A DNA stretch of 64,000 nt from Euglena gracilis. Lineage: Eukaryota. This document shows, piece by piece, positions 4,301 to 49,845 of the stretch; positions within the stretch are counted from its first letter, which is position 1, and each line of letters opens with the position of its first letter. Below the pieces are notes generated by a model. The model ran no database searches. It was given only the letters and a program-made list of their open reading frames with translations, and was not told the origin of the DNA. The position numbers were made by a program, and so were the translations under genes. The stretch is from contig CP154954.1 of NCBI GenBank assembly GCA_039621445.1, positions 19,578,642 through 19,642,641 of the forward strand, read 5' to 3'.

Positions 4301-7300
4301 TGCCAGACCTGCCGAGTCCATTTCCGGGAACCAAATCGAAATTGCGAACCTGTCGTCTTTGAAACGTCGTGAAACAAACAAAAATTCAACCACTTGCAAG
4401 GACATGCCCACCCCTTAAACTGTCTCCAAACAACAGGGGGGGGGGGGCTGCCAATATCAGGTACCCCAAGGCACAACACCCAGGTGCCAAGTACCCTGGG
4501 GGGGTGTAGGTTGAGTTTTCATGCAGGCGGCGGTGATGGGGGGGGGGGTCGGCAGACCACACCCCCCGGTTTTAGGCGGGCAGGCCGCGGCGCGGCGGCA
4601 CCTCACGGCCCTGAAGCGGTACGGCGTGCAGAGCCGGCCGACGCCACACGCGCCGGGGGCGGAGGGCGCAGTGCTGTGCCTCGACGTCGTCGCGCCACTG
4701 GACAGCAGCCCCGGCCCGGACGCGGAGCTGCTGGAGGTGCTGGCGGAGGCCCTGCTGGCGGCGGCGCTGCCGGAGGCCTGCAAGCCGCAGTTCCGCGTGT
4801 CCCACGCCCAGATCGCCGAGGTGTGCGGCGGTATCCCCCCTCCGCTTGAAAGTGGTAAAAAGTAAAAGTCTTTGAACCTTTGCTTTCCTCCTAATGAGTT
4901 GCCGATGTCAAGCTGAAAGCTACAACCATACCCAGACGATAAAATTTTTTTTGTCGGGTGGGTTTTGGGTACCAGACCCCCCCCCAAACGCTTCCCCCAA
5001 GATGGTTCCAGCTGTTCCCCCTCCCCCAGACCCATAGCCCCATAGCTTTTCAGACAATTCCTCCCTCACCCTTCCTCGCCCCCACGCCTGTGAGGAATAA
5101 GCCGGATCATGCATTCTTTAACGACCCCCTCTGAGGGAGGGGACATTTACACACCACCAAAAACCAGCCAGCCACCTTTTCTGGAGAGCCAGGTGGAGTT
5201 GTCTAGTCACTGAATCCTTCCACCTGAATGGACAGGACTCAATCTTCCAAGAGTTTCCAGCGAACATCCACAGCGGTGGCTTCATCCCAGCCCCCCCCCT
5301 ACGAAAAAAAACAGATAAAGGGGGTGTCTGCTGGCTAATGTGCCTCGTCCGGTCTCACCGGAGGGGACCCTCACCCTGACCCTCACCCTGAAAGCCAGCC
5401 AGTTCCTCTTTCGAGCAGCTTCCAGCCGGGCAGACAACCTCCCCGTGGGGGAGGGGTTGGAGCCAGCCCAGTCCAGCTGGATGAGCCGGGAAAATCTCGT
5501 TGGGAAGCATTTCGCCTGAGAGGCAGTCGGCTTCGGTCGTCCTCTGTGCTGGATTTTCATCAAAAGAATGGTCGATGCGGATCTTGGGCCATTTTGAGCG
5601 ATGATGAAAATTGTGGGGACAGTCCAACAAATGGTGAGGGTTGTTTTTGGTGGTGGATGATTTTTTCCCCGCTGCATCATTCCAATTCAACTGGATTTGG
5701 GTTTTTTTCCCCTTGGTTGAGTGTCGGCTGGATTCCCCGGAATCTGCACCCCTTTAGGGTGAGTACAGCACCTTTTTCTGCCAGACAGGCCGGAACCCCG
5801 AAGGCCTTCAAAAATCCCCTGCCCGGCTCAGGTTTTCTGCGTTGGCACATTAATGTGTGTTTTTTTGCAAATTGTTTGCGCACATCACCCCGACCAGAGG
5901 GAGGCCCCCCCCCCCCTGAGTTGCACTACGGCTTCTTGGCTGGTTTATGGCCGGCGCTGACTTCGCTTCTGGCCCAGTTTGCTGTGTGATGAGTGGCCAG
6001 GCGTCCCATCCACCCCCTTCATTGCCGCGGCCAGGAGCTGCTCAGCCTCTGCGGGGTGCCGGAGCCCTGCCGGGCGGAGGTGGCGGCGGCGGTGGACGGG
6101 CTGGCGGGCAGCACGTGGCAGGCGGTGAAGCGGCGGGTGCAGCCCCATGTGGAGGACCGCCTGCTGCGCGTGCTGCGGGCAGGGCCAGCCGGGAATCCCG
6201 AAAACCCGAGGGGTGGAGGGGATGGGGGGTGGGGGTGGGGGGGGGTCCCGGGGGGGGGGGGGAGGTTGACATCCACAATTTCCCGACATTTTCCCGCCTT
6301 TTCCCGTGATTTTTCACCCAATCTCCAGCAGTCTTACACAATTCACCCACAAACTTCGCAATTTTTTATTATTTTTCTGGAGCGTCGCTGTAATTCTGCC
6401 GCCCACCCTCTGGGTCCCCCATTTCCCAGGGTGGGTCCACCCCCCCTTCCTACACAGCCCTGGCTGCGGGAGGTTGCTCACATCCAGGCCGCGCTGGAGG
6501 ACCCAGCGGCGGTTCGGAAGGCGGCCAGCGAGGGGTGGGCAGGTCGGGGTGGGGGGGGGGGGGCTGTTGACAACTCTGTCTATGGAATTGCGGCTCAGGG
6601 CCCCATGCAGTTTGCTCTTTATCCCTCTCTCCGCGTCCACCAGGTTTGCGATGGAGACCGGGCTGTATTCCGAAAACGATTTGGAGTGCAGATGAAATCG
6701 GCAAATTTCTTCAAGGTTAAAACAACCTCTCCCTCTCAAGTCCCTGGAGAGTAGCAGCAGCAGCAGCAGCAGCAGTAGAGGTTGTTGTTGTTGTGATGCC
6801 TGGGCGGGAAGAAACCACGACAGCGGGAGTGCGGTGGCCGAGACACTGCCGCTGGGTGGCGGGAATTCTGCAGCATTGCCGTTGCGTCTGCGGCGCCCGC
6901 CCGCCCCTCCCACGGACGATGCACTGGAGGCGTTCCGGAAGGCGGGAGCGGGGCCCGACGCGCTGGCCTCCGTGGAGCGCGCCTTCGGAGACCTCTTCGC
7001 CCTCGGGGAGGTGGTGGGGCCTGTCCCTTTGCTTGGCGTGGGGAAGGGGACCCGATGGATGGCAGTGTGGGTTGGCTACTCACCCACCCGCCACAAAGGG
7101 CCTGTGTGAATGTGTGTATCGTGTTTGGGGTGTTGGGTTTTTGGGGATTGGGGGTTTTTGGCGTTTTGGAATTTTGTGGTTTTGGGGCTTTTAGGGTTTT
7201 GGGGTTTTGGGGTTTTTTTTTGGTGATGGGTTCCAGGGGGGATTGCTGATGGAGGGGGCTGGTCAAAAGTCATCGGCATTTTGGAAGTTTGGCAGTTGGT

Positions 7301-10300
7301 TCTTGAGCTTCCTTCCATGGGGCAAGCCGAGGGACAGTGCGGGCCTTGGGCCTGGCAGTACCCGTCGTGGTCGACCTCGGCTGCCTCGCGGACTACGCCA
7401 CCTACTGCGGGGTGCTGCTGCAGGTGTGGTGGCAGGGGCGGTGGGCGTGCTCCTGCAGGGAGGTGGGGGCAATGGCCATCCATTTGGCCATTGCCGTCAC
7501 GCCTGGCGTCACGTCCTCCCAGTCACTGCAAGAAACAATCGCTGGGTGATTTCAGGGCTCGCTTGGCCATGAGGTACCCATGGGATTCTATTCTCATTCC
7601 TTGGGTTTATATTTCGTTCCAGAATTTCCTCGCTCTCGATTCAGTGACGTCATTGCCAGTACATGAAATATCTATTTCCTGTACTCCCGAAGTTTGTTCA
7701 TTGGAGCTGTTTTGTACTTCTTTTTGGGTTCATTTTTAAATTTTTTAAATTTTTTGCCTTATTTTAATATTTTTTCATTTTATTTTATTTTATTGTTTGG
7801 TATTTATTTCATTTTGGTTTTTTTATTTCCCGTTTTGCAGTTCAACTCCAAAGCCAATGTGCATTTCCTTCCAAGGCCCCCACCCGTCGCCGCAGGCAGG
7901 GCTGCAGGGCCGCACGTTCGAGGTGGTGGCGCGGGGCGGGCGGTACGATAACCTCCTGCAGCGGCTGCGCGCCCGGCAGCACCGGCTGCTGCAGTGCTCC
8001 GGCGCCCGGCGGCTGCCGCCCCTGCCGGAGGTCATCCCCAGGCGGCTGCGGGTCTCCGCCTGCTGTGTACGACTGCCATCGGACTCTTAATGAGATGAGA
8101 ACTCGGGACCCCCCAATGTTTTGTAATACTTCATACACTTCAGTTTGCCCCATCTTGTGTGTGTTTTTTTTATATACAGGAAATGGGGTGTGAATTTCAT
8201 GCAAATTCTGTTTGATTTTAAGTTTTTTGGGGGCTACACCCTGGCAACGCACCACGCACCACTCCGTCCCACGTTCCCACAAGTTTGTACACTTTTTTTT
8301 GACGCCGCTGAAAATTTTCCTCTGCCAGTAAATGACATGGCGGACGGGTAACTCCCCCCCCCCCCGGTTCGACCGCCGCCTGCCGGCAGCGTGCGGGGTG
8401 CAGGTGGACGTCGCACGGCTGGCGGAGGGGGCGGCGGCGGACAAGGCGCGCCGGGAGAGCGCGGCGGGCGGCGTGGAGGTGGCGGTGTGCAGCGGCGGCG
8501 TGCTGGACACGGCGGAGTACCTGCGGGAGGCGTTCCCCGCCGCGAAGGCCCTGCGTGGTGCGCCCTTGCCCCCCTCCCCCCCCTGTTGTTCCGCCAGCGG
8601 CCCACCTCCAAAAGACCTGTTTAATTGCCTGAAACATTCCGTCAATGTTGGGCACACCTGCAAAAAACAATGAATTAATTTTTTGATAAATTAAATTGCA
8701 TTTTCAGGAAACAGCACCCCATCCTTGTTAGTGTGACCGTGTTTTTATGTGCCGGGACCGCCACAGAAATTTTTTAAGTTTTGCGCTGCGACTGCCAGGG
8801 TGATCCTCAATCTCTGTCCTGTCTGCCCCAGACACCTTCTTCAGGCTTCTTCCGCTGCTGGCTTCCTTGATACTTTCTCAACCACGGCCCAGAAGAAACC
8901 AAGAAGGATATTGGGTGGCAGGGCGTGAGTTTTTGTGTTTAGTGAGTCATCTGTTTTCACATATTATCTTTTGATCCCGTCGAAGCAAAATGTTGTGTGC
9001 TGCTCTGCTGCTAAATTTGCATGCTGTGCACCACGGCAAAATACGCTTGTGCCGCAACCACCGTGGCAATAAATTTGTTTGTGTCGTGACTGCCGCAGAA
9101 AAACAAATTCTTTGTGCCATTAAGCCACCCCCAATAAGACCCCCCCCGCAAAATAAGGCCCCCCAAATATATGACCCTGGGGCCGATTGAACAAAACTCC
9201 AAAATAAGGCTCCCAAAAACAATCCCTTGACGCAGGGGAGGGTGTAATTTCTCCCTTAAAAATCACCAATAAAATCCCAATTGGACAAAAAATAATGAAA
9301 TTTCAAAAATTCTAAACATGGTAAATGCCAATTTATATCAATCACCCGGCGCAAAGGGCCGAAGGAAAGTATTTAGTGTTTTCAGGAACCTGAAAAATGA
9401 TGTCTTTTGATTTGATTTGATTTGATTTGAAGTGATTTTTTTTTTTCGGGCGCAGGGTCGGGCGATAAAAAATCCAAAAATAAGACACCCCCAAAGATGA
9501 GACCCCCCCCCCCTGGAGGTTTCCAGCAATGGACCCAAAATATGTCCCGGTTCTAATTTTTTGGGGGGGTTTTACCGCTGCAGATTTTTTTTGCGCCACG
9601 GCACGAGCGCCGCGGCCCACAATCTACCCCTACCCCTCCCCCCGGGGGTGGGTGGGTGGGTGGGTGGGGGGACCCCTCTCCCCCCCGGACTTAAAAAAAA
9701 AACCCTGTTTGATGGCGGGCATAATAAGGCAGCAGATTTCGGAATTGCCACCCACCCCCCCCCCTCCCGGCGCAGCGTGGGGCCTGCGGGTCAGCGTCCT
9801 CTACGACAGCGCCGCAGCCGGCGATGCGCTGAAGGAGCACCTGAAGCGCCTGCAGCCCGCGTGGGTGCTGTTCGTCAAGCCCACTGGCCCCTGGACCCTC
9901 AGCTCTTTCGCCCAGGGCCCGCTGCCCTGCTGATCCCCCCCCCACCAACAGACCCCCAAACCCAGCCTGCGCAAGCCCCAGTGGCATCACACACATGGAA
10001 CATTCTCTTTTTACCAGGACTCCGACGAATGCAACTGGGCACTACCCAGGGTTGAACTGGGAACCAAAAAAATCGAAACTGCAAAAATATCTTAAAGAGC
10101 TCCAACTGTGCAAAAAAGAATACCCCAAATTCGGGCTGTCCAAACCATTTTCGACCCACTTTTGTCCATTTTGGCTCTTTTTGCATGTTCCAAAAAAAAT
10201 CTGTCACCTTCCAGCTGCCAGAAAAAAAAGAAAATAAGGATAATTAAATCGCGTCGTCTGGGCGGGGCAGTACAGATGCAGGCCGTGCAGCGTAGAGAAC

Positions 10301-13300
10301 ACCCTCCTCATTCTCGCCAGCATCTTGTCATCCCCACCATGTTGAGGTGGCCGGCGACCCCTGGCCCCACCCACCGGGTGTCGCGCGAGGTGGGCCGGGA
10401 CCACCTCGGCAAGGTGGTGCACGCCATGGTGCGCGGCGCGAAGGACCGGCCCGGCTCCGCCCACCACGAGTCGGGGGCGGAGGCGGAGGAGGCGGAGGAG
10501 GCCCGGGGGGACCTCGGACTGCAGGTGTGTTGGTGTGTTGATCTTTTTTAAATGAATAAGGACCTTTGGATGTCAGGTGACAATGGAAGCCCGGATGTTT
10601 GGGGAGCCCTCCCCACGTCAATAAGTTGTCTTCCAACCTTTGTATTTTTCGAACCTTACCATAGGGATTGTCTCTTACCCTTATCTTTGCTAACTTGTAA
10701 ACAATTTTAAAACAATTTTCTCACCTTTTTTGTTTAAGAAATTATTTCTTTAAAAAGGTTTGTTTCTCCGAACTGCGAAATCTTTGTCCTCTCATCAGAC
10801 TTGTCCCGGAATTTACGATTATCCACAAAGCCTTGTGGGTGTCGACCCCCCCCACCCCCCACCAGGCCTTCCCGTGTTTCCGGAGTGTCCATTTTTAGTT
10901 CAGAGTTTGGTTTGTTTAGTTCAGAGTTTTCCTTCGCATCGAACGTGCCAACGCAGATTTTCCTCGCGCGGTTTCTTCTGTGGGGGGGGTAGTGGTGTAG
11001 GCGACCACCTGCTGGGTGGGGGTCGACCACCTCTCCCCCGCCAGGCCTTCCTGTACCGCGCTGGACTGATACATTCCGACGTTTGCCTCGGTTTGTTGCC
11101 GTCAACAGGGAGGATGGAGTCGAGGGCGACAATGGAAGGCTGGGGTGGGGGTCACACCCAGGGCTTTAGCCCAACACTGGGTTTCTACAGAGAGATTCAG
11201 ACCCTCCCTGTGGAGCAGCCCCCCCCCCCAGAGGGAAGAGGTCTGGGAGTTCCCCCAGAACCAAATTTTTTTCATCCCTGGCTGCCGTTTTGCACCAAGT
11301 ATTATATCTTGGTGTATTTTTCGGCCAGGTTTTTCGGCCAGGCCAGAAAAGTGTGCAAAAGCACGATTTGGGCTTTTTTTTCAGCTCAAAAAAATATTCC
11401 CGGCACTCTGTGATGGATTTTCTTTGTACAAAAGAGTTCCGACCCCCACCCCCCCCCCTTCTCATTTAGCACCCTGGGGCACCCCTGCCAGCACCACCAT
11501 CTCGGTAGGTGCGGAGGTCCTACCCCGCCCCTGCCTCCTTCTTTTCCTTGTCCTTTTCCACATGCGCTGCATTTTCCATCAAAAATTCCTCCTGCACCTT
11601 CGGAACTTTTGCGGTTGGTGCCAGGCTCTTGTTTAACGCGGACGGCGTCTGGGGGCATGTGGGTGGGCTAAGCCCCCCCCTCCTGGTGGGTCCCACTCCG
11701 GGAGGTGTCGGCCCCAACGGAGAAGAAGCTTGGTTGGTGGCGGGGTCAACCCCCCCCCAGGGTGACCCCACCTTCTGGGGTCACCCCCCTCCCCCCCCCC
11801 CCCAGGCCTTCCCGTGCCGCCGGGTCCGGACCTGCCCTGTCCCACCCCCGCCCACAGGTCACGGTGCTGCCCGCCACGTTCCGCACCGCGGACATGAGCG
11901 CCTCCGTGCGGCGCCAGCTGGTGACCAGGGCCAGCCCCGAATCCCGACAGCCCAGCTGTGTGTGTGGGGGGGGTGCCAGAAGAAAGGGGGGGGGGAGGTC
12001 CTGTTGTGCAAAACAGCCGTGTGCCGAATAATGAGATTAATTGGGTGGAAATGAGAACATCGAGTTCCATTATACACTGTCAGTTCATGCGCAGATGACC
12101 ATCATTTTTCTTGCTTCTTTCAGTGTCCATTTGTCAGGTTAACCCCCCCCGGAAGTCAGATTTTGGGGGCAGGTTCCATTTCTGGTGCTTATTTTGGCAA
12201 CCCCATTTTCAAAGTTTTGCTTCTACCAACCATTCAAGCGTTTTAGAAACGGACGACAATATCTGCGGGTTTTTTCCCCAGATTTCCGGGCTGAAAATGC
12301 TCCGCCCTGACCCTCCCCTCCACCCCAAAAGGGATCCCATTCTGCTCCCAACCCCCTCGTCTGAGGTCTCATCTGTTGTAGCATTTGGTCATGCAAAGAT
12401 TGCTCAATCACAGACACATTGTTTCCACGAATTTGCCGGCCAACTGACGATGCCGAGGCTAGCGGAGGGGGTAAATGACAACACGGAGCACGTGTGACGC
12501 AGGGCCGCCCTGTCACCATCGTGCTGCCTACGCGCCTTCCAGTCGGCCATCCGCCCCCAGCTGCCGAACTGCCTCGTGCTGTACTGCGGGCTGTCCTTCC
12601 TGGACGTCCGCACGGCGGTCAGCGTTTTCCACGGTCTGATGCCCGGCCGGCCTGGCGTTGGTGCCAATGGCCCAGTGGGTGTATTGTGTTATGGCTGCCA
12701 GGTCGCAAGAGCTGCACTTGCACAACCCCTGGACCCCCCATCTGCGATTTAATTGCCCTTATTCAGGCGGCTGGAAAGTATCAGATTTTTTTGGAACGTG
12801 TGAAATTGGCCAAAATGGACAAAAGTAGGCCGAAGCTGGTCTGGGCAGCCCAATTTTGGGGTCGATAACTTGACCTTTTTCAGGTGTTTTTTGCAGTTTC
12901 GATTTTTTTTTGGTTCCCGGTTCAACCCTGGGTAGTGCCCAGTTCCAGCCGGGAGTCCCATAGAGGGGGGGGGGAGTCCAGAGATTAACTCAAGCCGGAG
13001 GGGGCCAGTCATGAGGGATCAGACTGCCACCCGGGGGGTCCAGTCAGCACATTTTTTTCCGGCCAGGAGCTCCCAGCCGGGCTGAGGAAACCCCCCGAGG
13101 GGGGGGGGTCCTTGCAATAAAGTTCGGGCCACCCCGGCGAAGCCAGGCTGGACCAAATTAATTTTCACCAAAAAAAAATTGAAAAGGGGCACTTTCTTCG
13201 CTTATTGAGTCGTAGTAGGTTCGCTTAGGTGGTCCAGTCCTCTGAGCTGGACAACCCAGGGTGGTCCAGCTCAGAGGCTGGAAAGTTTGGGCTGATTGGA

Positions 13301-15319
13301 AAAAACGCTGCTGATGACCCCCCAGGGGGTCCTGGGGGTCCGCAGGCTGGCGGGAAAAGGTGCAGGCTGGACAAACCAGGGGTCCAGGGGGGTCTGGCTG
13401 GCTGGCAGCTGGACCTGGCAGGCACCCCCCACAGAATAACCGGCAAAGAAAACCAAATCCAGCCAGGTTGGCATTTCTTTCAGCCAAAATTGGGAGTTGA
13501 GAAAACAAAAACCAATCAAAAATGCCATTTTTTTGGCCATTTTTTGACCGCGCATTTCGTCATCACTTGACGGAGGTTTTCGGGATGGGAGCATTTTTGG
13601 GATTCACTGCGCATTCTTGCGCACATGCATCCGATTGAGCCCGACGCATTCCCTTCCCCCATGAAAGTCGGTGTCGGGCCGCTTTTTTTCCTGACCCCGG
13701 ACAAGCCCACGCCTTGCTGCTGCCGCAACAGACGTGCGGTACAAGCACCTGCAGCCCCTGGTGGCCGCCCTGCATGAGGCCACAGAGGCCGTTCCTCTGC
13801 TCCCCCTTTCGTTGCTGTTTGGCATTGGAGGGCATTGTGGGTTGAAGCGCGCCGCAGGTCGGAGCAGTGGGGTGCTGCCGGCCAAGAAGCACGCCCACCT
13901 GTTTGTGTACAGTCACCTGGACCAGCGGTTTGAGTTGGTGCTGACTCAGGCGGCGCAAACAGCTCGTTCTTCTGGATGTAAGAAAGATGTTGAGTTCCCT
14001 AGGCGTGTCGATTTTGGGGTAAATTTTGGGTCGGCTGAAATTTCAGTCTTTTTTTTTAGGGAAATTGGATGCCTTTCCACCACTAAAACATGTATTTTGA
14101 AACATGAAAACATTTTGAAAGATGTATTTTTCGAAGCATTTTGTAGAAACATGTATTTTTTGTGTGTTAGTCAAGTATTCTGAATTTCTCCAAGGTTTCT
14201 CTTGAGCCTTGAGAAGAAACTTAACTTATGCCGACTGCAATTTGCTGAAAACGATCATTTGATCGTTTATGAAGCAATATGCGCACAGAAACAGCCATTT
14301 GACAGCGCGAAATGAAAGAACCACGGCGTTGCTTGTTTGTTTCTGCATTTTTTTCTGCCAATTGCTTGAGGTATGGAGAAGATTTTTTTGGATGGGGAAG
14401 TTGTTTCCCTCTTGAAGAGCTTTCAGACTCCAAACAATCTTTTCTCTGAGAGGATGACGCCAAGCCTATGATGAGCTATGTGTGTGGGTGTGTGTGTATG
14501 TATGTATGTATGTATGTATGTATGTATGTATGTATGTATGTCTGTCTGTATGTATGTATGTATGTATGTATGTATGTATGTATGTATGTATGCAGTATGT
14601 ATGCATGCATGTATGTATGTATGTATGTATGTATGTATGTATGTATGTATGTATGTATGTATGTATGTATGTATGTATGTATGTATGTATGTATGTATGT
14701 ATGTATGTATGTATGTATGTATGTATGTATGTATGTATGTATGCATATATGTATGTATGTATGTACGCATGTATGCACATATGTATATATATACATACAT
14801 CCATACAAACCAGGGGTTTTTTTTAGTCGTGGACCCCCGGGGGGGGAGGGGGGGGAGGGTGGGTCTGGCCGAGCCCCCCCCCCTCCGGGAGGGTCCCCCG
14901 GAAGGGGGGTGGGATATATTTTTCGTCGCCTTTGGCGCCGATAATTTTTGAAAAGTGCTATTTTTAGCACTTTTCGCAATTATTCGGCCATTTCTTTGTG
15001 GGTCCCCCGGGACCGCCCCCGGGAGGGGCCCCCCCAGGGGGTGGGTGGGTGGGGGGACCCCCCTCCCCCCGGTCTTTAAAAAACCCCTGATACAAACACA
15101 CAATCACACACACACACATATGTGTGTGTGTGCGTGGATATGCCAGCCTGGCTTGCATTTGTGGTACTCCGCCACGGGGGGAACAGAGAACGCTGCCGTT
15201 TGCGCCGCCTACGGCCGAGTGCCCTGGCCCCGGCGCGGTCCGCCCCCGCGGTGCACTTCAACCGCCGCCACCCGAAGCGGACAGGCAAGACCTACCGACA
15301 CGACGTGACCTCCGACTGA
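455..15319 (+). CDS. GCN2: GCN2-like eIF2-alpha kinase, 3' part (5' exons lie upstream of the window); about 19 exons
   Basis: Reconstructed exons: 455-622, 731-~830, ~1139-1312, 1963-2076, 3277-3432, 3988-~4053, ~4576-4820, 6035-6176, 6468-~6535, ~6890-7010, ~7345-7423, 7896-8035, 8388-8557, 9776-9909, 10369-10524, 11858-~11930, ~12532-12633, 13732-13943 (may hide a short intron), ~15217-15319 (TGA). Kinase motifs GVGTRTYCAPEQ...YNEK|VDIFSVGILFLEM...FGTEHER. HisRS-like motifs FLTR|NADLVSLP, LKRY, VARGGRYDNLL, ACGVQVD. C-terminal LFVYSHLDQRFELVL. A kinase followed by a HisRS-like domain is the GCN2 architecture. Confidence 0.88.
1073..1100. repeat. (GT)n microsatellite
   Basis: Direct reading. 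Confidence 0.95.
1313..1962 (+). other. Nonconventional (non GT-AG) intron
   Basis: gcc-CAGggcgg ... ccgccCTG-ccccc, 8-bp perfect terminal pairing. Removal gives in-frame VDTV|TSDRASPHFQRLLGSLF. Confidence 0.8.
2377..2823. mobile_element. hAT-type MITE, 447 bp
   Basis: TIR caggggttttctt ... aagaaaacccctg. 8-bp TSD ggcgtggc at 2369-2376 and 2824-2831. Confidence 0.9.
3277..9909 (+). CDS. GCN2: GCN2 histidyl-tRNA-synthetase-like domain exons
   Basis: In-frame joins across introns 3433-3987, 4821-6034, 6177-6467, 7424-7895, 8036-8387 and 8558-9775. Class II aaRS motif-3-like GGRYD at ~7935-7950. Confidence 0.8.
3433..3987 (+). other. Nonconventional intron
   Basis: aag-CAGcccaaggc ... gccgtgggCTG-gcaac paired ends. 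Removal gives VFLTR|NADLVSLPSNP. Confidence 0.8.
6177..6467 (+). other. Nonconventional intron with intact 8-bp target-site-like duplication
   Basis: gctgcggg(6172-6179)-CAGggc ... gccCTG-gctgcggg(6463-6470). Removal gives RVL-R-EVAH in frame. Confidence 0.82.
8036..8387 (+). other. Nonconventional intron
   Basis: ccc-CAGgcggc ... gccgcCTG-ccggc, 8-bp perfect stem. Removal gives PEV-I-ACGVQVD. Confidence 0.82.
9635..9707. mobile_element. 3'-end fragment of the same hAT-type MITE family
   Basis: gggggtgggtgggtggggggacccc...ttaaaaaaaaaaccctg matches 15035-15089. Confidence 0.6.
9910..10368 (+). other. Nonconventional intron
   Basis: gcc-CAGgg ... ccCTG-gcccc. Removal gives WTLSSF|THRVSREV in frame. 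Confidence 0.72.
10033..10252 (+). repeat. Interspersed repeat; inverted copy at 12744-12944
   Basis: aactgggcactacccagggttgaac...aaaaaaatcgaaactgcaaaaa is matched in reverse complement at ~12890-12944, and similarity continues for ~200 bp. Confidence 0.8.
12744..12944 (-). repeat. Inverted copy of the 10033-10252 repeat
   Basis: Reverse complement similarity to 10033-10252. Confidence 0.8.
14496..14765. repeat. (TATG)n microsatellite
   Basis: Direct reading; source of the spurious MYVC/YIHT ORFs. Confidence 0.97.
14811..15089. mobile_element. hAT-type MITE, 279 bp
   Basis: TIR caggggtttttt ... aaaaaacccctg. 8-bp TSD atacaaac at 14803-14810 and 15090-15097. Confidence 0.92.
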
Positions 15320-15471
15320 GCGGCCGGCCGCGGCCCCGCCCCGCGGTGGTGTTGTGTGCTGGCTGGCCCCACCCATGGCCGCCCGCCAGCTTGTTGTCCG
15401 GGTCTTGCCTGATGCCGAAAGCCCCCTCCCCCACCACCACCAGCCAGCCGGGGGGGGGGGGGGAAGGGCAG

Positions 15472-15713
15472 GGCAGAACGGGAATCGGCCAAACAGCCAG
15501 GGTGGTGGGTGGGGGAGGGGTCGACCCCCCCCACCACCTCCTCCCGTATTTCCGGGAGCACCAATTTCCGACCCCAAAAATTTTTCCCGGCGCCTTTGGT
15601 GCCGGAAAAAAATTGTTAAAAAATGTGTGAAAATGCTGTAGTGGGTGGGGGGTCGACCCCCCACCTCCAGGGAGGGGGGGTCGACCCCCCCAACCAGGCC
15701 TTCCCGTTCTGCC
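15472..15713. mobile_element. Short interspersed MITE-like repeat (GTCGAC-core family)
   Basis: Ends ggcagaacgggaa ... ttcccgttctgcc are inverted. Related copy at ~18462-18635; partial copies at ~10835-10876, ~10990-11053 and ~11735-11815 all end ccaggccttcc. Confidence 0.75.
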
Positions 15714-16653
15714 GGGTGGAGGGGCAGTCCTGTGATTACAAGCTGGATTTCCAGCAGACCCCAGCCGAGGGAGGGGGGAGGGGGCTAGGCAGTCAGGCGG
15801 CTGGCATACACATCACAGGCACCGTCGGCTCAGAATTGGGAGCTTGTGTGCCCCCTCATGCCAACCACACTGGGGTGGGGGGCAGGGGAAAAAGCAAATG
15901 TGTTTTTTTTGTGTTTTGATGGGTTTTTTGATTTTAGAAAAACCTGTTTTTCTGCGAATCTCTCTGTTTTTCTTTGCAGGATTTTTGCTTTCCCACTGGT
16001 GATTTTTTTTGGGCACAATGCTGCCTAACGTCAAATTTTCCTGAGAAGAGTTGAAAAATTCACAGGTCCTCTCCAGCAGAAGTATTTACACCCCAGGCAT
16101 GAATTTTCACGGTTTTACATTCAATTTTCTTTTTCTTTTTGCATTTTATTGCTTGTGTGTGCGTGTGCGTGCGTGCGTGTGTGTACGTGTGTGTGTTTGC
16201 ATCGCATTTTTGAGGTCCGTGTTGCATCCCCCTCCCCAGGCTTCTGCTTGAGGGTTCGCGGGGGGAGGGCTCAACTGCACTAGTCCAAATTTGGCTAGTG
16301 GAAATCCTTGTGGGCCCCCAGGGGGGTTTGTTAGAAGGGCGATCAAGTGGAGTTTTTCCACGCGACCAGTGCGGAGGTTGTGACCTCAAAACCTGCCAAA
16401 AATGCCCATTTTTTGGCGGTTTTGGGTTTTTCTCCCTACCAAATGACATCCAGAAAACATATTAAAATTGTCGTTTCCACCTCGGCCTGCCAGAGGAAAT
16501 TCTTTGCAGTTGGGGAGACCCCAAGACCACCCCCAAGTGGACCCCCCTGGGGTCTTTAAACAAACACCTAGTCCCCCCTTGGGGTGAAGGGTAGTTGCAC
16601 CTCCCTCAGCATGCCCTTCTCCTTGAACCCCCCCCCTCCGGTTTGGTTGAAAC

Positions 16654-16943
16654 CAGGGGTTTTTTTTAGTCGTGGACCCCCAGGGGGGAGGGGGGTGGGG
16701 GGGGGGGTGCGTCGCGCCGGCCGGGCCCCCCGGGGGGGGGGGGTCCCCCCGGAGGGTGGTGGGATATACTTTTCGGCGCCGAAGCCGCCGAAAAGTGCCG
16801 TTTTTAGCACTTTTCGCGATTTTCGGCCATTTTTTTGTGGGTCCCCCCGGGACCCCCCCCCCCCCCCCCCGGGCCCCCCCCCCCCCCCCCCCGGGAGGTG
16901 GGGGGGGGGGGGGGGGCACCCCGGCGCTAAAAAAAAACCCCTG
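16654..16943. mobile_element. hAT-type MITE, 290 bp, same family as 14811-15089
   Basis: Same TIRs and internal sequence (agtcgtggacccc, tttttagcacttttcgc, tgtgggtccccc). 8-bp TSD gttgaaac at 16646-16653 and 16944-16951. Confidence 0.92.
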
Positions 16944-17749
16944 GTTGAAACCCTCTGTGGTCTATCTGATGGCCTGGTGCTGACTCCAACGCTGTCCGGT
17001 CCGGTCATTGCAACCGGTGCCTCTCTCCCCCTTCAACGGTTTTTTTTTGCCAGAGAAGGCCCAGCGGCGTATCATTTGTGTGGGCCCCCCGTCCATCACC
17101 CACCGCACCCCTTAAATCACTCGCACGCTCGGGACCGGTCAGCACTGAACCGAATGCCGGTGCTCCAACGTGCACCGCATGTCCGCTGCGAAAGCGCCCG
17201 ACCCCCTCTTTCCCAGCGAGAGGTCCACAGCCGCCACTTTTTGCCACTCAGGAGCCTTCCCCTGACCTGTCACGCTGTGCCTCTTGCAGGACACTCCAGC
17301 CACGCCCGTTTCCTTTGTGTAAATGACCACCACTTTCTCCCGGCCCCCTCACACAGTATTCTGGATCGACACCATTCAAGGGGTCCCATTGGGCGAGGGA
17401 GGGCCGTTTTCGTCCAGCTCTCTCTTTTGCTTGCGGCCAGTTCCACAGTCACAGACAGTTGTTTTTTTAGAGACATTCAACATAGAAACAGGGAGACATG
17501 ATGGCGTTCCCCAGGGTTGAAAAACACTGTGCTTGAGCACAGCGTTCCTTTTTGATGGCCCTTTTAAACCTTTAAAGGGTGGTCTCCTGCAACTAAGCTT
17601 CCACGCTTGTCGTTCTCAATGGCACAGAACTATCCAGGAGAACGTTTTGCTTTGGATAGCATCCGCCCCTTTGGGGAGCCCCATTGGAAACCACACCCAA
17701 GTGAACGGTTGCTCGGGTGGGTTTGAGGAGGGTTCGATGCTTGTCCATC

Positions 17750-17798: not shown

Positions 17799-31523
<13,725 letters not shown>

Positions 31524-35845: not shown

Positions 35846-36257
35846 AGTGTACGTCCAAGGACTTCCCTTTGACCCTTTTTGCCCCGAAAAAGCCTGTTTT
35901 GCTTTCTCCTGGTGCGCACCTACTTAGGTGAGTAAAAAATCCTTGGAGTAACAAAACCCTTTTTCCCAATTCCTCTATGCTAAGGCAGAGCACAAAGCAA
36001 GTCGCTGTGAAAGGATTTTCCTGCACAGTCGTGTTCAGTCTTTTCAGAGGGTTATCCTCTTACTTCAAAACAGTCAGAATGTGAAGAATAGAATACCACC
36101 TGTGGGGAAAAGAGATCACGCGAGCACGTGTGATACGTGTCGCTAATTCCCATAGGATCTGCCACGATCGTCAGGCTGTGTTCATCACAGCCGTCAGATT
36201 GTTACGTATCCTGACTCTGCAGGTTTCCTACAGAGCTGGGATCGTGCCTGGTACACA
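35846..36257 (-). repeat. 3' LTR
   Basis: Near-identical direct repeat of 51724-52128. Confidence 0.95.
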
Positions 36258-37160: not shown

Positions 37161-40100
37161 TTACATCCTTTCCAACCGCCAATAATCATGGCGGGAGTCC
37201 ACCAGGACCATCTGAAAATGCGGTGGTGGTGGCCTGTCCACGAGCCAGGTTGCTGGCGATTCGTAGTAAAAGTCAGGTGCCACCCAGTCCCGAACCCATC
37301 CTTCCGGGACTGTGTGCTTGGTTGCACTCGCTCTTTCCGCGAGGAACCATTGCAGCTTCTCCCAGAATTTCCTGGGCAGAGTGGCTGGCCAGATGAAGTG
37401 ATTCATCCGTGGGTGATTGGCTGACACCTGCGGGGCATTCTCCGGGTGGAAGTCAATGGGCATGTGATACGCACATTCCGCGCGGACTGTATGGGGTCGT
37501 AATACGGCCCCAAGCCAGTCTTTCCAGGTCATCCCGTGGCTTTCGGGTGGCCATTGTGGCAGGCACCAGCGACCGTTTCGGTCCTGGGTTGTGAACAGGC
37601 GGAAAAATATCTTTTCCCTGTCCGCTGTCTCCCAGAGGTAAGGTAATCTTACCCCTGCCTCCTCAGCAGCGAGGCGTATCGCCCCACTGTCGATCTGCCA
37701 CCCACGGGCCATTCCCGTGTGGTGGTAGTCGTCAAGCTTGAGGTTGGAGTACTTGAAAAAGTCCTTGTACTTTTTGTGCAAGCTGGAGTATTCCTCCAGT
37801 GGCTTCTGGGCTCTTGGCACGATTGTGCGAACTGCGCCTTCCGCAGTTTGCCAGAAGGTACCTCGAAGGCAGTTGACACAGAGTAGTGGTGCATTCGTAC
37901 CATCTCGCTCGGTGTAGCTAAAATTGTGCTTGTGGGTCAAACTGTCCACGCACTTGGCGCATACCAAGGCGGCACAGTTGGGGATGTATACATCCTTGTG
38001 GAACGATTTCCGATACACAGGGTTGCACACATGGACGAGGGATAATCCAAAGTCAGGTGCACCGTTATACATCTTGTGGCATACAGTGCAAAGCCACACA
38101 AAACGGTTTTCCGTCGTTTTGTCGACGAGTAATTCCTCGCCGAAGTATTGGGCCAAAACACGGGGGTATCTGGAATTGTAATAATTCCAGGTCACGTTCT
38201 GATCAAAGGACCATTTTCGGCCCTGACAGAACAGTGGCTCAATCCATCGGTTGAGACATTGATGTGTCCTCGGTTTGTGGTCGATCATCATGTACCTGTT
38301 TTTCAGGTTATGAGTCCCAGGATCATCCTGGTTGATCGCGTTCCAGTCGATGACAACTTCGTCTTCCGAAGGTGTCTCGGCTGTTGAGGCGCGGGATATT
38401 CCCTGCCCCTTTGACTGAGGTTTCGGCTGTGAGGTTTTCCCATAGCCGGATGACGTGACGTGCGTGAATCCTTGTCCCGAGGTTGATCCCCGAGAAGAGG
38501 ATGCAGCACTCTGGCCTCCAGCACCACCACCGCCTTTCGGTGGGGGCTGATCACCAGATTTCGGTGTGGGCTTGCAAGGGGCGGCGCCTGGCTTTGTTTT
38601 CGCCCGGGCCTTCGGACTTCCGGTTTCCGGAGTATCCGAGGGCCGCCGTTCGGCGTCACGCTTGCTCGCCCAGGTGCGTGGTGACGCTTGGGACGGGGGT
38701 CTTCTCCCCGACGCCGAGCGTCGTGGACCTTCAGCAGGGGCTTCCAGAGCTGATGGTCGTCCTACACGCTCCTTCGCGGCTTCCGTGGGTTTCCCAGGGG
38801 TAGCCGTGGTGGATGGTGTGGGTGTAGCCTTGGCCGGCGCACTTCGCGCTGGCTGAGCCCGTGGTGGAGGCATGGACGTCCGCTCGGCCTGTTTTTCAGG
38901 CGCCGGTGACCGTGTGCCTTGACCCTTCTGTGCAGTGATTGTGGCTGTGCCCTGAGGTGCGGGTTCATCCCGTGCCTCTGGTGGCAGTGCCCGTGCTGGT
39001 ACAGGTTCATCCTGTACTGTCACGGTGGGTATTGTCTCCACTGCCATTGCTGTCTGGTCGCCTTCCTTCCGTGTCGCTTCCGACACTGGCGGTGGCGCCG
39101 GCGTTGGGGGAGGTTCATCCTCCGCCATGGCTGTAATGTCAGGTGTTTCTTCCACCGGCTGGGCAGTTTCCGCCGCGGCTGTGGAATAACTGGCCGCAGT
39201 GCCACGTGGAGTGACAACTGCGATCAGTGACCGCAAACCACCAAGTACGCGCCCGCCCAGTGAGGTGCGCCGCTCAGGTCCTTCACCTGAAGTGGGCTCC
39301 TCCGCTGGCTCCTCTGTCGACGGGGTTTCCACGGAAACAGGGAGCTTGAGGCGTAATACCTCAGGCGTGTGGGGTACCGTCTCCGGCGGGTTTTCCCGCG
39401 GAGGGGTCGGTACGCCTGCCGTACCCGTTGAGGTTGGTGACAGTGGCACAGGTGTCATTTCACCTGTCGGTGATACTGGACGCTGGGCAGTTTCTGCCAC
39501 AGTGTCCAGCAACACGACCGATGGGCTACGGGTTTCCCGTGCCGGAGGTTCCGCTGGCTGAGGTTCATCCTGGGCCATTGGGACCGTTTCCTCCTCCTCC
39601 TCCGCTTCCGGAGGGGATTCCTCTGTGTGTAGTTGTGCTGCAGTACGCGGGTCTTTTGCGCTCCTGTAGCACCCTTGTGTGTCTGACAGGCGGTAAAAGC
39701 TTATACTTTCACTCCGGTCAGAGTTGGGGTATGGGGGCGGCCACGACGCTCTCACCCAGCTTCCGGGTGGAGGTTGCGGCTCGTCGTCGTCGATCAGACA
39801 GAGGTCTTCCCACTGCTGTCGACAATTCTCGCTCACGCCGTATTCTCCTGGGTCTTCCAGGAAAGCGGGCAGCGGCAACGCATAACGAGGTTCTTTCCCC
39901 TCGTGTGCCGCGAAAAACATTTGGAAATCTTCCCAGATCAGGATATTCCCGAACTGGGTGTCCAGGTGCTCCTGGAGGCCGATTTCGGCGTCTTGCCAGT
40001 CCGGTCGCAGGTTCATCCTGCGTTGGTCCGGGTCATTGGGTCTGGCGTCTACCTCGGTGTATCCCCGAGGTAACCACTTTCTGTGCATATCCACATCAGC

Positions 40101-40910
40101 GGTCATGTATTTCAGGAAATATATGTAGACCTCCAGGACGTAGGTAATCCACGCCCTGTGCCAGTACTGTTGTAGCAGAAATATTTTCTGCCGGTGCTGT
40201 TTCAGCACCTTTCGGTCTTGCGTTCCGATCTGGGGATTCCGGCACTGATGCAGGAGGAATCTCCTGGTCGGCTGGCTACCGGCATTCTCGGCAGTCGGAG
40301 GCGGTTTTCCGCGTTCTCCGAAACCCCAGAAGTCAGCAATGTGAACTTCCTTGCAAAACTGGCATTCCAGTTTGTACCGCTGGGGGTACGCGAGGTCGAC
40401 GTCCAGTACCTTGAACAGCGTGCCATACATGCTGTCCAAGTATACTTGGAGATTGCATGTGAACATTACCGCGGCCTGCGCCTGGAGTTTCTCCGGCAGG
40501 GGGTAATATTTCCACTGAATTCCCAGTGCTCCCACGGAATACATGTGCGTGAAGATTTCCTTCAACTGTGCGACGAACGTTTCGTCGTCGTCACAATTAT
40601 TCATACAATCGATATACGTCAGACCGTTTCGGTCGGTAAAAATGCCGAAATTCTGGCAGGGGTATCCCAACCAGAACCACAGCTCCCAGAAACCAGGCAT
40701 CCGGTCCAGGACAACTTCATTCGAATGAGGGTATCCCTCAAAATCATGAAGTTCAGAACTGTAGAAAAAACGTTTGCAGTGATCGTTCATGCGATTCTGC
40801 ACCACTTCGAGCACCGCATCCGGTGGTCGGTGGATCATGTTGCCTGCTTTTGTGTACTTTTGGAGATCTTCGTCGGTTTTCTGCCAGATCTCCTCAAGGT
40901 ATTTGAACAC
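37161..40910 (-). CDS. Large extra ORF after pol (1249 aa open frame), unknown function, Cys-rich fingers
   Basis: Uninterrupted 3.75-kb frame between the chromodomain and the 3' LTR; two aromatic-rich globular regions flank a Pro/Thr/Glu-rich linker. Confidence 0.85.
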   Translation of the reverse strand: MFKYLEEIWQKTDEDLQKYTKAGNMIHRPPDAVLEVVQNRMNDHCKRFFYSSELHDFEGYPHSNEVVLDRMPGFWELWFWLGYPCQNFGIFTDRNGLTYIDCMNNCDDDETFVAQLKEIFTHMYSVGALGIQWKYYPLPEKLQAQAAVMFTCNLQVYLDSMYGTLFKVLDVDLAYPQRYKLECQFCKEVHIADFWGFGERGKPPPTAENAGSQPTRRFLLHQCRNPQIGTQDRKVLKQHRQKIFLLQQYWHRAWITYVLEVYIYFLKYMTADVDMHRKWLPRGYTEVDARPNDPDQRRMNLRPDWQDAEIGLQEHLDTQFGNILIWEDFQMFFAAHEGKEPRYALPLPAFLEDPGEYGVSENCRQQWEDLCLIDDDEPQPPPGSWVRASWPPPYPNSDRSESISFYRLSDTQGCYRSAKDPRTAAQLHTEESPPEAEEEEETVPMAQDEPQPAEPPARETRSPSVVLLDTVAETAQRPVSPTGEMTPVPLSPTSTGTAGVPTPPRENPPETVPHTPEVLRLKLPVSVETPSTEEPAEEPTSGEGPERRTSLGGRVLGGLRSLIAVVTPRGTAASYSTAAAETAQPVEETPDITAMAEDEPPPTPAPPPVSEATRKEGDQTAMAVETIPTVTVQDEPVPARALPPEARDEPAPQGTATITAQKGQGTRSPAPEKQAERTSMPPPRAQPARSAPAKATPTPSTTATPGKPTEAAKERVGRPSALEAPAEGPRRSASGRRPPSQASPRTWASKRDAERRPSDTPETGSPKARAKTKPGAAPCKPTPKSGDQPPPKGGGGAGGQSAASSSRGSTSGQGFTHVTSSGYGKTSQPKPQSKGQGISRASTAETPSEDEVVIDWNAINQDDPGTHNLKNRYMMIDHKPRTHQCLNRWIEPLFCQGRKWSFDQNVTWNYYNSRYPRVLAQYFGEELLVDKTTENRFVWLCTVCHKMYNGAPDFGLSLVHVCNPVYRKSFHKDVYIPNCAALVCAKCVDSLTHKHNFSYTERDGTNAPLLCVNCLRGTFWQTAEGAVRTIVPRAQKPLEEYSSLHKKYKDFFKYSNLKLDDYHHTGMARGWQIDSGAIRLAAEEAGVRLPYLWETADREKIFFRLFTTQDRNGRWCLPQWPPESHGMTWKDWLGAVLRPHTVRAECAYHMPIDFHPENAPQVSANHPRMNHFIWPATLPRKFWEKLQWFLAERASATKHTVPEGWVRDWVAPDFYYESPATWLVDRPPPPHFQMVLVDSRHDYWRLERM

Positions 40911-42574
40911 CGAGGCAACGTCGTAGTCCTTCGTTTTCGAAGGTTCGGCGGCTTTTCCGCCTTTTCCTGCTGGGGGTCCGGCAGATTTTCCGCCTTTGCC
41001 TGGAGCTGGCCAAGCGGCTTTTCCGCCTTTGCCAGGTGGGGCTTTTCCACCTTTCTCCTGGCCTTTTCCTTTCCCCTTACCCTTGCCCTTTCCTTTACCC
41101 TTACCCTTTGTGTTGGACAGCCATTCGAATGTTGCCCAGTAATCCCACTATTCTGGGTCTTCTGGTGTAAACACAGGGTAAGTCACGGATTCCGTGCTGG
41201 GCGTTCGAGCAATTTCCTGCTCAGCGTCGCCACGATTTGAGTAAACCGGCGCGAGCAGGGACAGTCGGGTTTCGCGACGTGCCCGTTCTGCCGTCACGTC
41301 TGGCGCTGGCGGAGATTCCTCCTCAGCGTCAACGTGCATCGCCGCGGGCGGATTTTCCGACCTCGGCGAGTGGCGCTGTGACTGCGGCGTCAGATTTTCC
41401 GGCCCGCGGTCACGCTTGCCGGCGGTAGAGCTTGGGTGTCGTGCTGATGGCGCTTCCGCCACAGCAACGTCCTGCTGTCGTGCTGGTTGACGTGATCGTG
41501 ATGGAGCTGGGACTCCTGTGAGAGCCGACACAGCGGCGCTCTTCGGTCGTCATTTCCGCCCGGGCAGGATTTTCCTGGACAGCGGAAACAGGGGGGCGAT
41601 GTGCGATTTGTCGTTGGATCGTCACAGCATATTCATACTTTTGACGCACCTCTTCAGACTCGAACGGCCGGCCAGTCCACGGGTTAACGGGTTCATCCCG
41701 AACCGGAGGCACTGGCGCCGCACGAGGCGCTGCCGCGGCTTCCCGCGGACGAGCGCTTCGGGCAGGGTCAGACGTCGCGGGAGGGTTTCCCTCCACAGAA
41801 CGTCGTGGCATAGTGTCAGGTATGGTTGGGTGGGGTTGAGGTGGATTCACGTACTGATCCCGTGGCATTGGTGCCTCCTGGGGGTAATCCCCACAGACGG
41901 TGTACTGAGACACGTGCTCCTGCGCAGGATAATCACGCCTGGGGCATGCGCTCAGGGGATCGACAAATACTTTCTTTCACACGTGGGTGTTCACTCCGGA
42001 CAGGTGCTTCCCCTGTCTCTTCCTCGGGTAATCCTGGGGAGTGAGCACGAAAGTGTGCAGTGTAAGTGCCAACTGGTGGTACCTGCCGTGCTACCTGTGG
42101 CGGGACTTCCACGCCCAGGTCACGCATGGTAATGTCCGCCGCGAATCCCGACGTGTCCGGGTCGGTGTAATACACCAAACCGGTCATCGTTGCCTGGGCG
42201 CACATACACCACAGGGCTGGAGGGGTATTCGCGATGGTCAAAATTTGACGACAGTGGTCATCCCACAACACCTGTGTGAGGTGGTCTGGTGCCGGGTTTG
42301 CGCTCATACGCATCACCCGGTTCATCGTCTCCGCCGTGCGGTGGATCATCACACCCGCATACGGTGGGAGGCGACGAGAGCCTGATGGCTGAGATGGACG
42401 CGCTTCCGCGGACATCGGGGTCATCCTGCTACTGCTGCTGGCCTCAGGGTTTCCCTGAGCCGCAGTTCGTGCAGGTGGCTGCGTACCGTATCGGTACGCA
42501 TACTGGTCAGGTTGTGGGTGAGTGGTTGGGTGGTAAGGCGGTCCTCCGCCTGGCTCCCTTCGACCGGGCAGCAT
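40911..42574 (-). pseudogene. N-terminal part of the extra ORF (two frameshifts, one in-frame TAG at 41148-41150)
   Basis: ATG 42574. Pieces 41933-42574, 41410-41913 and 41148-41531; the last is in the same frame as 37161-40910 and reads through KGKGKG/GKGGKA repeats. Confidence 0.7.
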
Positions 42575-42738: not shown

Positions 42739-44192
42739 TCAAAAACTTGTCATGGAAACATCAATGTTATGCTTCTTGTTCCACAGCTTCCAAACTTGCT
42801 GGACATACCCAACAAAACTGGTTGATGGCTCCCAAGTGTCCTCCTCGGGCCCATACCCTTTCCAGCGGACCTTCCAAAGGTGCATACCTTTGTCGATTTT
42901 GTGATCGATAATTTTATCGACTACAAAGTCGTCCGTCTCAGGTAATCTGGAACGGGGCTTGAAGTGCAAGCACGGGATGGGTTTCCATTCCGGCGGTGCC
43001 AGGTATGGCTTGAAGTCGTCCATATGAACGTCCTCAACAGCATTCGGTAATGCAACCTTGTATCGCCCGCTGGTACCTAGTCTTTCTAGGATTTCACAGG
43101 GGCCGAGAGCCAAAGGGGGTCCAGCTTGGAAGACTGCATGCGAGTACGGCTATTCCGCACCCACACGCGGTCACCGGGACTATACACAGGTGACTTGAAA
43201 TTCTGCAAAAACGATTTCCGTTTAGTTGCATGAATATCAGTGACTCGCTTCTGGACTGCAGAACGTAGATTTTCTACGTCCGCAAACCAGGTCTCGCAAC
43301 TGACACTCGTTCGGGCGGGTCTCTCCGAAGGGACATCCCCTATGGCCGGAGGGTCCCGTCCGAAAACTAATTTATAGGGTGAGTGAGGTAAAACCAACCC
43401 TGGTAGGGTATTGATATAAAACAAAGACCATGGTAGCACTGATATCCAGTTGCTGCGCGAGTCAGCCAGTGAAAGGCGAAGCATATTCACGACGGATTTC
43501 ACGGCTGCCTCGGCTCTACCGTTGCCTTTGGGTCGGTATATAATGGAAAAATGTTGCTCAATTCCGAGTAAACCGCACAAAGTGGTGAAAAACCTTGAAG
43601 AAATCAAATGGTCTTGATCACTCACAATTTCATTCGGCAAACCCATTAAGCAAACACATTTCTCCAAAAATATAGTTGCAAAAAATTGGGCAGTCAACCC
43701 TGACTTCTGGCATGGAATGGCTACAATGTACCCACTCAGCCTGCAGACGACAACAAAAACGTAATCGTAAATTTTGTCGTCCGTTCCTTAGCACGGTTCT
43801 AATTCTAGAAAATCCATGCAGAGGGATGTAATAATGTCAGTGGGTACGGGGAAAAAATCCATCGTACCAGGGGAGGTACCTCTGCGGGGTTTTACCGCTT
43901 GACAAATTTGACACCGTTGCGCTATTCGCAAACAGCGTGAGTAAAGCTCTTTCTCGCTCAGGGTTGCGCAATACCTGTGGCCCACCAACGAAAGAAGTTT
44001 GGGGGCCCCAGGGTGACCGTGGTTGTGATAGCACAAAATCACATCACCAACCAGGTCCTGGGGGACACAATATTTGTAACCCGATTCATTGCGAAAAACC
44101 AACCGTAAAGGTGAAAGAGTGAAATTCTCCAGCACTTCGCCATTGCGAAGTCTGGTTACAATGGTGTCATACGGATCACGACTATAATCCAT
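42739..44192 (-). pseudogene. Integrase (HHCC, DDE) with C-terminal chromodomain; a few frameshifts/stops
   Basis: HNHGHPG...CQICQ, MDFLEL, IVSDQD, GNGRAE, SPYKLVFGR. Chromodomain [10 protein letters not shown]...[17 protein letters not shown]. Confidence 0.92.
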
Positions 44193-47644: not shown

Positions 47645-47736
47645 GAGGTCCGTGCCCTCGGACCTCGGGCTCCCCTACTCCAAGTCCGAACCGGCCACAT
47701 AGCCGGCAACGGACTTGTTGGTGGAGTAGATGGAAT

Positions 47737-49842: not shown

Positions 49843-49845
49843 GTG

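Follow-up and report, generated by a model that had tools for sequence, protein, structure and literature searches.

An exonic CAG...CTG element with an intact 8-base duplication in Euglena gracilis matches the nonconventional-intron code and suggests RNA-level removal of a hAT-like transposon

The nonconventional introns of euglenids lack GT–AG borders. They follow the layout N3-CAG...CTG-N5 and then a purine, have paired ends and possess borders that are slidable through repeats at the junction (Milanowski 2014, 2016; PMC12501133). These introns make up 71.8% of the introns of E. agilis, with roughly 466,000 of them annotated (PMC12501133), and their origin and removal have been at issue for about 30 years. 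An origin from elements resembling MITEs (miniature inverted-repeat transposable elements) has been proposed since 2014 (PMC3935182) and was repeated for Euglena (PMC12501133) and for diplonemids (PMC12621601), and a 2024 review describes repeats resembling target site duplications (TSDs) and equates the inverted ends with CAG/CTG (PMC11282704). The basis of the published idea was limited to inverted ends and short, unspecified repeats, and the accessible parts of these papers name no transposon superfamily and present no non-exonic elements with the same ends. Here we describe a window of E. gracilis DNA (64,000 nucleotides; assembly GCA_039621445.1, contig CP154954.1, positions 19,578,642 to 19,642,641, forward strand), in which a CAG...CTG element at 6180–6462 interrupts a coding exon of a putative GCN2-like kinase gene. 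To the MITE idea the window adds elements outside exons that share these ends and have a duplication of defined length (8 bases), an exonic copy whose duplication is intact, and spacers of 3 + 5 bases that equal the duplication length, so that a loose hypothesis becomes sharply testable on existing data. A full-text search of euglenid papers, with subscription papers and supplements outside its reach, returned no statement of an 8-base duplication, of the 3 + 5 link, of hAT-like elements or of non-exonic copies. A first-pass annotation of this DNA, made from its letters alone, had remarked that a MITE origin was hypothesised; the remark is correct, TSD-like repeats are in print too, and only the link of 8 = 3 + 5 and hAT is new.

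Direct reading and a script place the 8-mer GCTGCGGG on the plus strand at 6172–6179 and again at 6463–6470. Between the two copies lies an element of 283 bases (6180–6462, plus strand) that begins with CAGGGC (6180–6185) and ends with GCCCTG (6457–6462), both of which abut the flanking copies with no gap. The repeat is exactly 8 bases long, as the neighbouring positions differ at either edge (6171 t versus 6462 g; 6180 c versus 6471 a). The exact inverted end of the element measures 6 bases, and 10 of 16 end positions are complementary. The code against which this anatomy can be read was derived from knock-ins in E. gracilis (Nomura 2025) and is written 5'-N3-CDG...CH'G-N5-6|R (PMC12501133). 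According to this work, the 5' spacer is strictly 3 bases, with one base more or fewer abolishing splicing, the 3' spacer is preferably 5 bases with 6 tolerated, and the downstream exon begins with a purine; pairing within the motifs is required, and wholly synthetic 50-base introns with only the code features are spliced (PMC12501133). The predicted nonconventional intron at 6177–6467 (291 bases, plus strand) fits N3-CAG...CTG-N5|R: the CDG motif is preceded by exactly 3 intron bases (ggg-CAG, 6177–6182), the CH'G motif is followed by 5 (CTG-gctgc, 6460–6467), the middle A pairs with T, and the downstream exon starts with G at 6468. In addition, CAGGGC and GCCCUG are paired in both the minimum free energy and the centroid folds, with the extra pairing, GGC/GCC, amounting to 3 pairs only, and the whole RNA fold of the predicted intron is not unusual (z = -0.75). 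Since 6177–6467 has every sequence feature of the code, it is predicted to be spliced if the euglenid machinery is present. Because of the GCTGCGGG repeat, nine registers yield the same mRNA, and 6177–6467 is the register that fits the code; of the left copy, the first 5 bases would be retained in the mRNA, with the last 3 forming the N3 spacer, and the first 5 bases of the right copy form the N5 spacer.

The arithmetic of the two spacers bears directly on what such splicing would leave behind. With the layout [t1..t8]CAG...CTG[t1..t8], cutting out t6–t8, the element and t1–t5 leaves one t1..t8 by construction, and as 3 + 5 = 8, splicing would restore the uninterrupted exon. The first-pass annotation had proposed this geometry, which agrees with the knock-in code (PMC12501133), element plus 8 bases being what is removed. 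As each end is the reverse complement of the other, removal is exact on either strand. Beyond this, the code needs only a purine at t6, which is present in all four duplications described below (G, G, A, A) and in three of the four on the opposite strand. The course of events that we favor is the following: a non-autonomous DNA transposon with inverted ends, hAT-like by structure, would have inserted into a coding exon of the GCN2-like kinase gene and duplicated its target GCTGCGGG; its inverted ends would pair in the pre-mRNA; the euglenid nonconventional-intron machinery would cut 3 bases before CAG and 5 bases after CTG; and the element together with 8 bases, equal to one copy of the duplication, would be removed, bringing back the original frame without a scar. 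Both the arrival of this copy by transposition and its actual splicing are what we infer from the anatomy, and we regard this account of 6180–6462, an insertion erased from the RNA along with one duplication copy, as moderately probable at this locus. A duplicated target also predicts a feature of the published introns, namely the junction consensus Y|R that is the same at both ends, as t5 and t6 would each be read twice. This doubling is consistent with the account and not decisive, since selection by the cutting enzyme at both sites would also yield it.

The same terminal architecture is found outside exons. Three free MITEs with CAG/CTG ends, paired ends and 8-base TSDs had been noted in the first reading of the window, and all three are as described there. 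The element at 2377–2823 (CAGGGGTTTTCTT...AAGAAAACCCCTG) has 13-base exact inverted ends and the duplication GGCGTGGC at 2369–2376 and 2824–2831, and sits in a non-coding gap of the same GCN2-like gene. The element at 14811–15089 (CAGGGGTTTTTTTTAG...AAAAAACCCCTG) has 12-base exact inverted ends and the duplication ATACAAAC at 14803–14810 and 15090–15097. The element at 16654–16943 belongs to the same family as the latter (78% identity over 219 aligned bases), with 14-base exact inverted ends and the duplication GTTGAAAC at 16646–16653 and 16944–16951. All three, for which no strand is assigned, start with CAGGGG, end with CCCCTG and have perfect 8-base flanking repeats. The targets of the 2377 and 16654 elements have the form G[8-mer]C, so that their repeats could be taken to extend to 10 bases, which would include the terminal C and G of the element itself; the duplication length is fixed at 8 because the repeats at 14811 and 6180 are exactly 8. 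The G[8-mer]C form in two of the four elements (2368–2832 and 16645–16952) may reflect a symmetric preference outside the duplication, or chance. A generic scan of the window for any inverted-repeat element with flanking repeats of 2–12 bases found no other family, with its low-complexity filter leaving out 16654 and with 2377 reported one base out of register; the recognisably recent inverted-repeat elements of the window are thus all CAG-ended with 8-base duplications.

To gauge these repeats against chance, CAG...CTG pairs 40–3000 bases apart were tested throughout the 64 kb window. A perfect 8-base flank occurred in nine pairs, four of which have an exact inverted end of at least 6 bases; the remaining five comprise four poly-C cases and one with only 3 paired end bases. 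Among 7865 CAGG...CCTG pairs, the flank was 8/8 in four, the same four elements, and 7/8 in seven. Among the 1510 pairs with an exact 6-base inverted end, 8/8 flanks were again found in four, which are the four elements, and when a gap of 1, 2, 3, 4 or 8 bases was placed between stem and flank the count was 0 each time. In 200 block shuffles, the mean number of such structures was 0.01, with a single hit in 2 of the 200. The four structures with 8/8 flanks are therefore confirmed as significant beyond chance, and the perfect repeat adjoining the CAG...CTG stem at 6177–6467, claimed in the first-pass annotation, is borne out by reading, script and shuffles.

The exonic copy lies within a chain of short plus-strand segments running from 458 to about 10500, with a GC fraction at third codon positions (GC3) above 0.9. 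For the segment 1151–1312, the best solved relative is the human eIF-2-alpha kinase GCN2 (8t7t_A, residues 975–1016, E 0.0011), and the next two structure matches are also GCN2. The segment 1963–2085 is weakly similar to the beginning of a different kinase chain (E 0.45), and Pfam searches on the gene pieces gave sub-threshold matches only (Pkinase E 0.07; tRNA-synt_His E 0.11). The identification of the host gene as a GCN2-like kinase thus has moderate support, which comes from the exon at 1151–1312. The insert is flanked by an upstream coding exon at 6023–6176 (5' limit approximate) and a downstream coding exon at 6468–6530 (3' limit approximate), both on the plus strand and, in the second case, within the open reading frame (ORF) 5993–6754. 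In the host frame, GC3 is 50/51 over 6023–6176, 52/96 over 6177–6467 and 16/20 over 6468–6530; outside its G-rich part, the insert has a GC3 of 29/66, and it contains a run of 13 G. The composition shift falls at the predicted intron borders, with the same frame on both sides, 291 being a multiple of 3. An unspliced transcript would still encode the protein plus 97 residues, which might ease the survival of a fresh insertion. Splice options were enumerated for 12 gaps of the GCN2-like gene, the two gaps touching 6468–6530 being left out; most gaps have many frame-compatible options of the GT/GC-AG or weak-stem kind, so that no gene model is fixed. Seven hand-picked, unverified candidates, comprising ones with stems of at least 7 pairs plus the perfect-repeat intron, have flank identities of 8, 5, 4, 1, 1, 1 and 1. 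In-silico predictors of nonconventional introns that combined a stem with GC3-rich in-frame flanks returned 854 and 345 candidates and were discarded as too unspecific. A long inverted repeat (10030–10252 and 12744–12947) has arms of about 220 bases, 82–100% complementary and 2.5–2.9 kb apart, which contain CAGGGTTGAAC / GTTCAACCCTG and enclose a GC3-rich segment of the kinase gene.

Related copies of the exonic element are also present in the window. About 45 bases at the 5' end of the 6180 element align with sequences starting at 15469, 18456 and 20917, with the common blocks CGGGAATC, AAAC and GGTGGTGGGTGG, and by eye its last 18 bases match 18628–18645 at 16 of 18 positions. The copy at 18456–18645 (plus strand) lies between coding-like flanks, starts with CAAGG and ends with GCCCTG. 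Its flanks are the same at 7/8 positions, inside a poly-C run, and its length and 8 further bases add up to 198, so that the frame is kept; it misfits the intron code in having CAA and not CDG, and the next exon would begin with C, so that its status as an intron is uncertain. The copy at 15469–15716 (plus strand) is 73% identical to the preceding one over 195 bases, with 6/8 flanks. As a ...KLDF... coding sequence follows 3' of both, these two may represent the same intron in a duplicated gene segment and not separate insertions. The relative at 20917–21080 (strand unassigned, start CGGGGCCGCACGGGAATCC, 3' end uncertain) is degenerate, with 3/8 flanks. By the measure used for introners, similar copies at unrelated intron sites, the 64 kb searched contain four copies that share about 45 bases at the 5' end, two of them perhaps belonging to duplicated gene segments, and the intact duplication is unique to 6180 among the four. 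The family link between the 6180 element and the other copies is suggestive.

Several observations weigh against the reading of 6180–6462 as a transposon that is erased from the RNA. The relatives of the element are 64–76% identical to it over 45–58 bases, parts of which are G-rich and of low complexity, and two of the four related copies may be duplicated gene segments; its inverted end has only 6 exact bases, and it represents another repeat family than the CAGGGGTTTT elements (14811 and 16654). Flanks of at least 6/8 identity occurred 16 times at the true register (four of them perfect) versus 5–12 times at shifted registers, which is no clear excess, and the 12 non-perfect ones look like chance. 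The excess of identity at the 8-base offset that the earlier annotation led one to expect did not emerge from this comparison within the window, in which decayed repeats at 6/8 or better stand without clear excess and power is low: most of the tested pairs arise by chance and do not represent real elements, and every position in the comparison sets an exonic base against a free intronic one, so that fast decay is to be expected. The host frame is open throughout the insert (97 codons, 0 stops), and no transcript-derived product of the gene came up when ORF 5993–6754 was searched against 1.84 billion representative proteins. The single match in that search (P0001) was spurious and repetitive. 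The open frame invites the alternative of a recent in-frame insertion that escapes splicing and is translated or tolerated, and the length of 291 bases, a multiple of 3, suits this as well. However, of 20,000 shuffled inserts, 5.2% were stop-free as well, so that the frame alone cannot tell an intron from a translated insertion, and the 13-G run and the AT-rich part of the insert with its GC3 of 29/66, set against 50/51 in the exon, speak against translation. Moreover, the insert has each sequence feature of a code that suffices for synthetic introns in E. gracilis. We give this alternative little credence. PDB searches with the ORF across the 6180 junction returned noise only.

A further explanation dispenses with a transposase and derives the intron from a staggered double-strand break, captured filler and the fill-in of an 8-base overhang. 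It is the reading of Milanowski et al. for gapC intron 4 of E. agilis ACOI 323, the only strain-specific, recently gained nonconventional intron reported by Milanowski 2016, whose junction carries eight-base direct repeats, longer than any other, that the authors interpreted as break repair (PMC4770533). The short inverted end of the present insert (6 exact bases) would also suit such an event. Break repair nevertheless gives no reason for exactly 8 bases in two independent cases and leaves unexplained both the abutment of CAG...CTG on the repeat and the same duplication length in three clear inverted-repeat elements within the same 64 kb; in addition, the ends of the insert are common to other dispersed copies. 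On balance, we consider break repair improbable here. That the 8-base repeat is a mere chance match is practically negligible: the GC-rich composition is the only point in its favor, against which stand the shuffles, with four structures observed versus a mean of 0.01, the shifted registers, none of which gave any, and the CAGG...CCTG pairs, where the 4 in 7865 with 8/8 flanks are all the same elements.

If the elements are transposons, the question of their superfamily follows. Assignment of non-autonomous families to hAT relies on duplications of 8 bases and on YARNG ends (PMC3014272), hAT inverted ends measure 10–25 bases (PMC8961557), and Hermes and the Ac group prefer nTnnnnAn targets (Ac/hobo/Hermes group; PMC10368747, PMC8961557). 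All four elements begin with CAGGG, in agreement with YARNG, and all four have an 8-base target duplication, exactly 8 in two and readable as 8–10 in the other two. The inverted ends of the three non-exonic elements (12–14 exact bases) fall within the hAT range, with the exonic one at 6 exact bases and 10/16 complementary. Two of the four duplications, ATACAAAC and GTTGAAAC, both of CAGGGGTTTT copies, fit nTnnnnAn; to be added to the points against the hAT-like reading are the misfit of GCTGCGGG and GGCGTGGC to this pattern and the finding of no DNA transposase by Pfam in ten exon-sized pieces and ten hand-picked long ORFs (of 207 ORFs of at least 120 codons), the matches of the ten long ORFs being to reverse transcriptase, integrase and gag zinc knuckle only. 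The hAT identity put forward in the first-pass annotation therefore holds as far as duplication length and YARNG ends go, and does not extend to a transposase in the window ORFs checked or to the targets, with nTnnnnAn in 2/4. We use hAT as a structural label only, and membership of the elements in this superfamily would follow from it conditionally. A transposon with 8-base duplications outside hAT, whether Merlin, P-like or with an undescribed transposase, is a rather unlikely alternative, and it draws on the partial target fit and the transposase result just given as well as on the two Merlin families known from the E. gracilis assembly, which show a conserved DDE motif, inverted ends that are nearly perfect and duplications of 8 bases (PMC8101967). 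Merlin elements, the only DNA transposons that we found reported for Euglena, resemble the present ones in duplication length (PMC8101967). They differ in their ends, which carry a conserved terminal 5'-GG (PMC8101967), whereas here the repeats abut CA...TG and the elements start with CAGGG, the hAT YARNG motif; the location of both CAGGGGTTTT copies in nTnnnnAn targets likewise argues for hAT.

Comparison with other transposon-derived introns reveals both common and distinct features of the proposed hAT-like system. Introners of Micromonas, Aureococcus, dinoflagellates and Fritillaria are likewise non-autonomous DNA transposons; they have inverted ends and target duplications and turn into introns on insertion, and in them, too, the duplication supplies part of the splice boundary and the element is removed with one copy (PMC11282704). 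They differ in that the spliceosome, in some cases in an altered form, cuts them at sites located on the element and the duplication, and their duplications measure 3 bases in Micromonas and 3–5 in Amoebophrya (PMC11282704), as compared with 8 here. In the present case, unlike in introners, the cut would be set by the distance from the stem, and the machinery is apparently not the spliceosome. The elements also resemble hAT MITEs in their 8-base duplications, YARNG ends, short inverted ends and lack of coding capacity. In work attributed to Giroux in 1994, the maize hAT element Ds is said to be spliced out of exons at the RNA level. Ds uses cryptic spliceosomal sites, and its removal is usually imprecise, whereas the present geometry would by itself make removal exact. 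Archaeal and tRNA bulge-helix-bulge introns and IRE1 targets are similar in that their cut sites are set by an RNA helix joining the ends, and tRNA-type splicing also releases full-length circles. Full-length circles are the form in which euglenid nonconventional introns are released (PMC11282704). Unlike in bulge-helix-bulge introns, no such geometry is present here, and the spacers are asymmetric (3 and 5).

Beyond this locus, the mechanism is plausible in general terms. In its widest form, euglenid nonconventional splicing would be an RNA-level eraser for one hAT-like class of DNA transposon that ends in CAG...CTG and makes 8-base duplications; nonconventional introns, roughly 70% of those in Euglena, would mostly be fossil insertions, Y|R would be the target read twice, and the youngest copies would have been filtered out as 'slidable'. 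Such an eraser would work in either orientation, provided that the sixth base of the duplication is a purine. The 2025 study set 'slidable' introns aside when deriving its motif (PMC12501133), which would have excluded the youngest copies with intact duplications. We put this general form forward tentatively and with less than even confidence. If true, it would constitute a transposon-to-intron system without the spliceosome and would explain ongoing intron gain within species.

Other introns claimed for the window were also considered. At 1313–1962 lies a probable nonconventional intron of the same gene (plus strand, CAGGGCGG...CCGCCCTG), whose stem comprises 8 pairs. Its length of 650 bases is compatible with the frames on both sides, a purine opens the downstream exon, and translation through it would run into 4 stops, all of which makes 1313–1962 plausible as a nonconventional intron. 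Within it, 1488–1561 forms a near-perfect palindrome of ACGT-rich repeats, 96% identical to its own reverse strand over 50 bases. The second intron proposed along with it, 31071–31385, is unsupported: no convincing coding frame was found downstream, and the first exon base would be C. Partial repeats had been reported at both, and the counts are right, with 5/8 flanks each (at 1316–1957 and 31074–31380); as remnants of duplications they do not stand, as this is chance level, the true register yielding 14 strong-stem pairs out of 202 with flanks of at least 5/8 and the shifted control 10 out of 202.

Several minor features complete the window. A probably truncated copy of the CAGGGGTTTT family lies at 9654–9707; it has a 3' end, the third of this family, that is 91% identical over 46 bases and finishes in AAAACCCTG, and no recognisable matching 5' end. 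For further copies, a metagenome scan based on the terminal motif gave one contig only, which was unrelated, and Rfam and tRNA scans of the window returned nothing. Long microsatellites with periods of 8, 5/10 and 2 bases occupy 14421–14810, 19834–20290, 26404–26607 and 27024–27400, and the 14811 element sits at the edge of a long microsatellite. On the minus strand, an open frame at 37164–41147 spans 1328 codons, starts with GK repeats and has no match in Pfam. Retroelement pieces are located at 42742–49845 and 54366–55076 (both minus strand), comprising an integrase core (E 6e-7, just under the Pfam cut-off), an integrase zinc domain, a gag zinc knuckle and a reverse transcriptase (E 4e-17). 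Furthermore, two direct repeat pairs, 35846–36257 with 51724–52128 and 60415–60797 with 63614–63995, are 90–99% identical and lie 15.9 kb and 3.2 kb apart, respectively; both may be long terminal repeats of retroelements.

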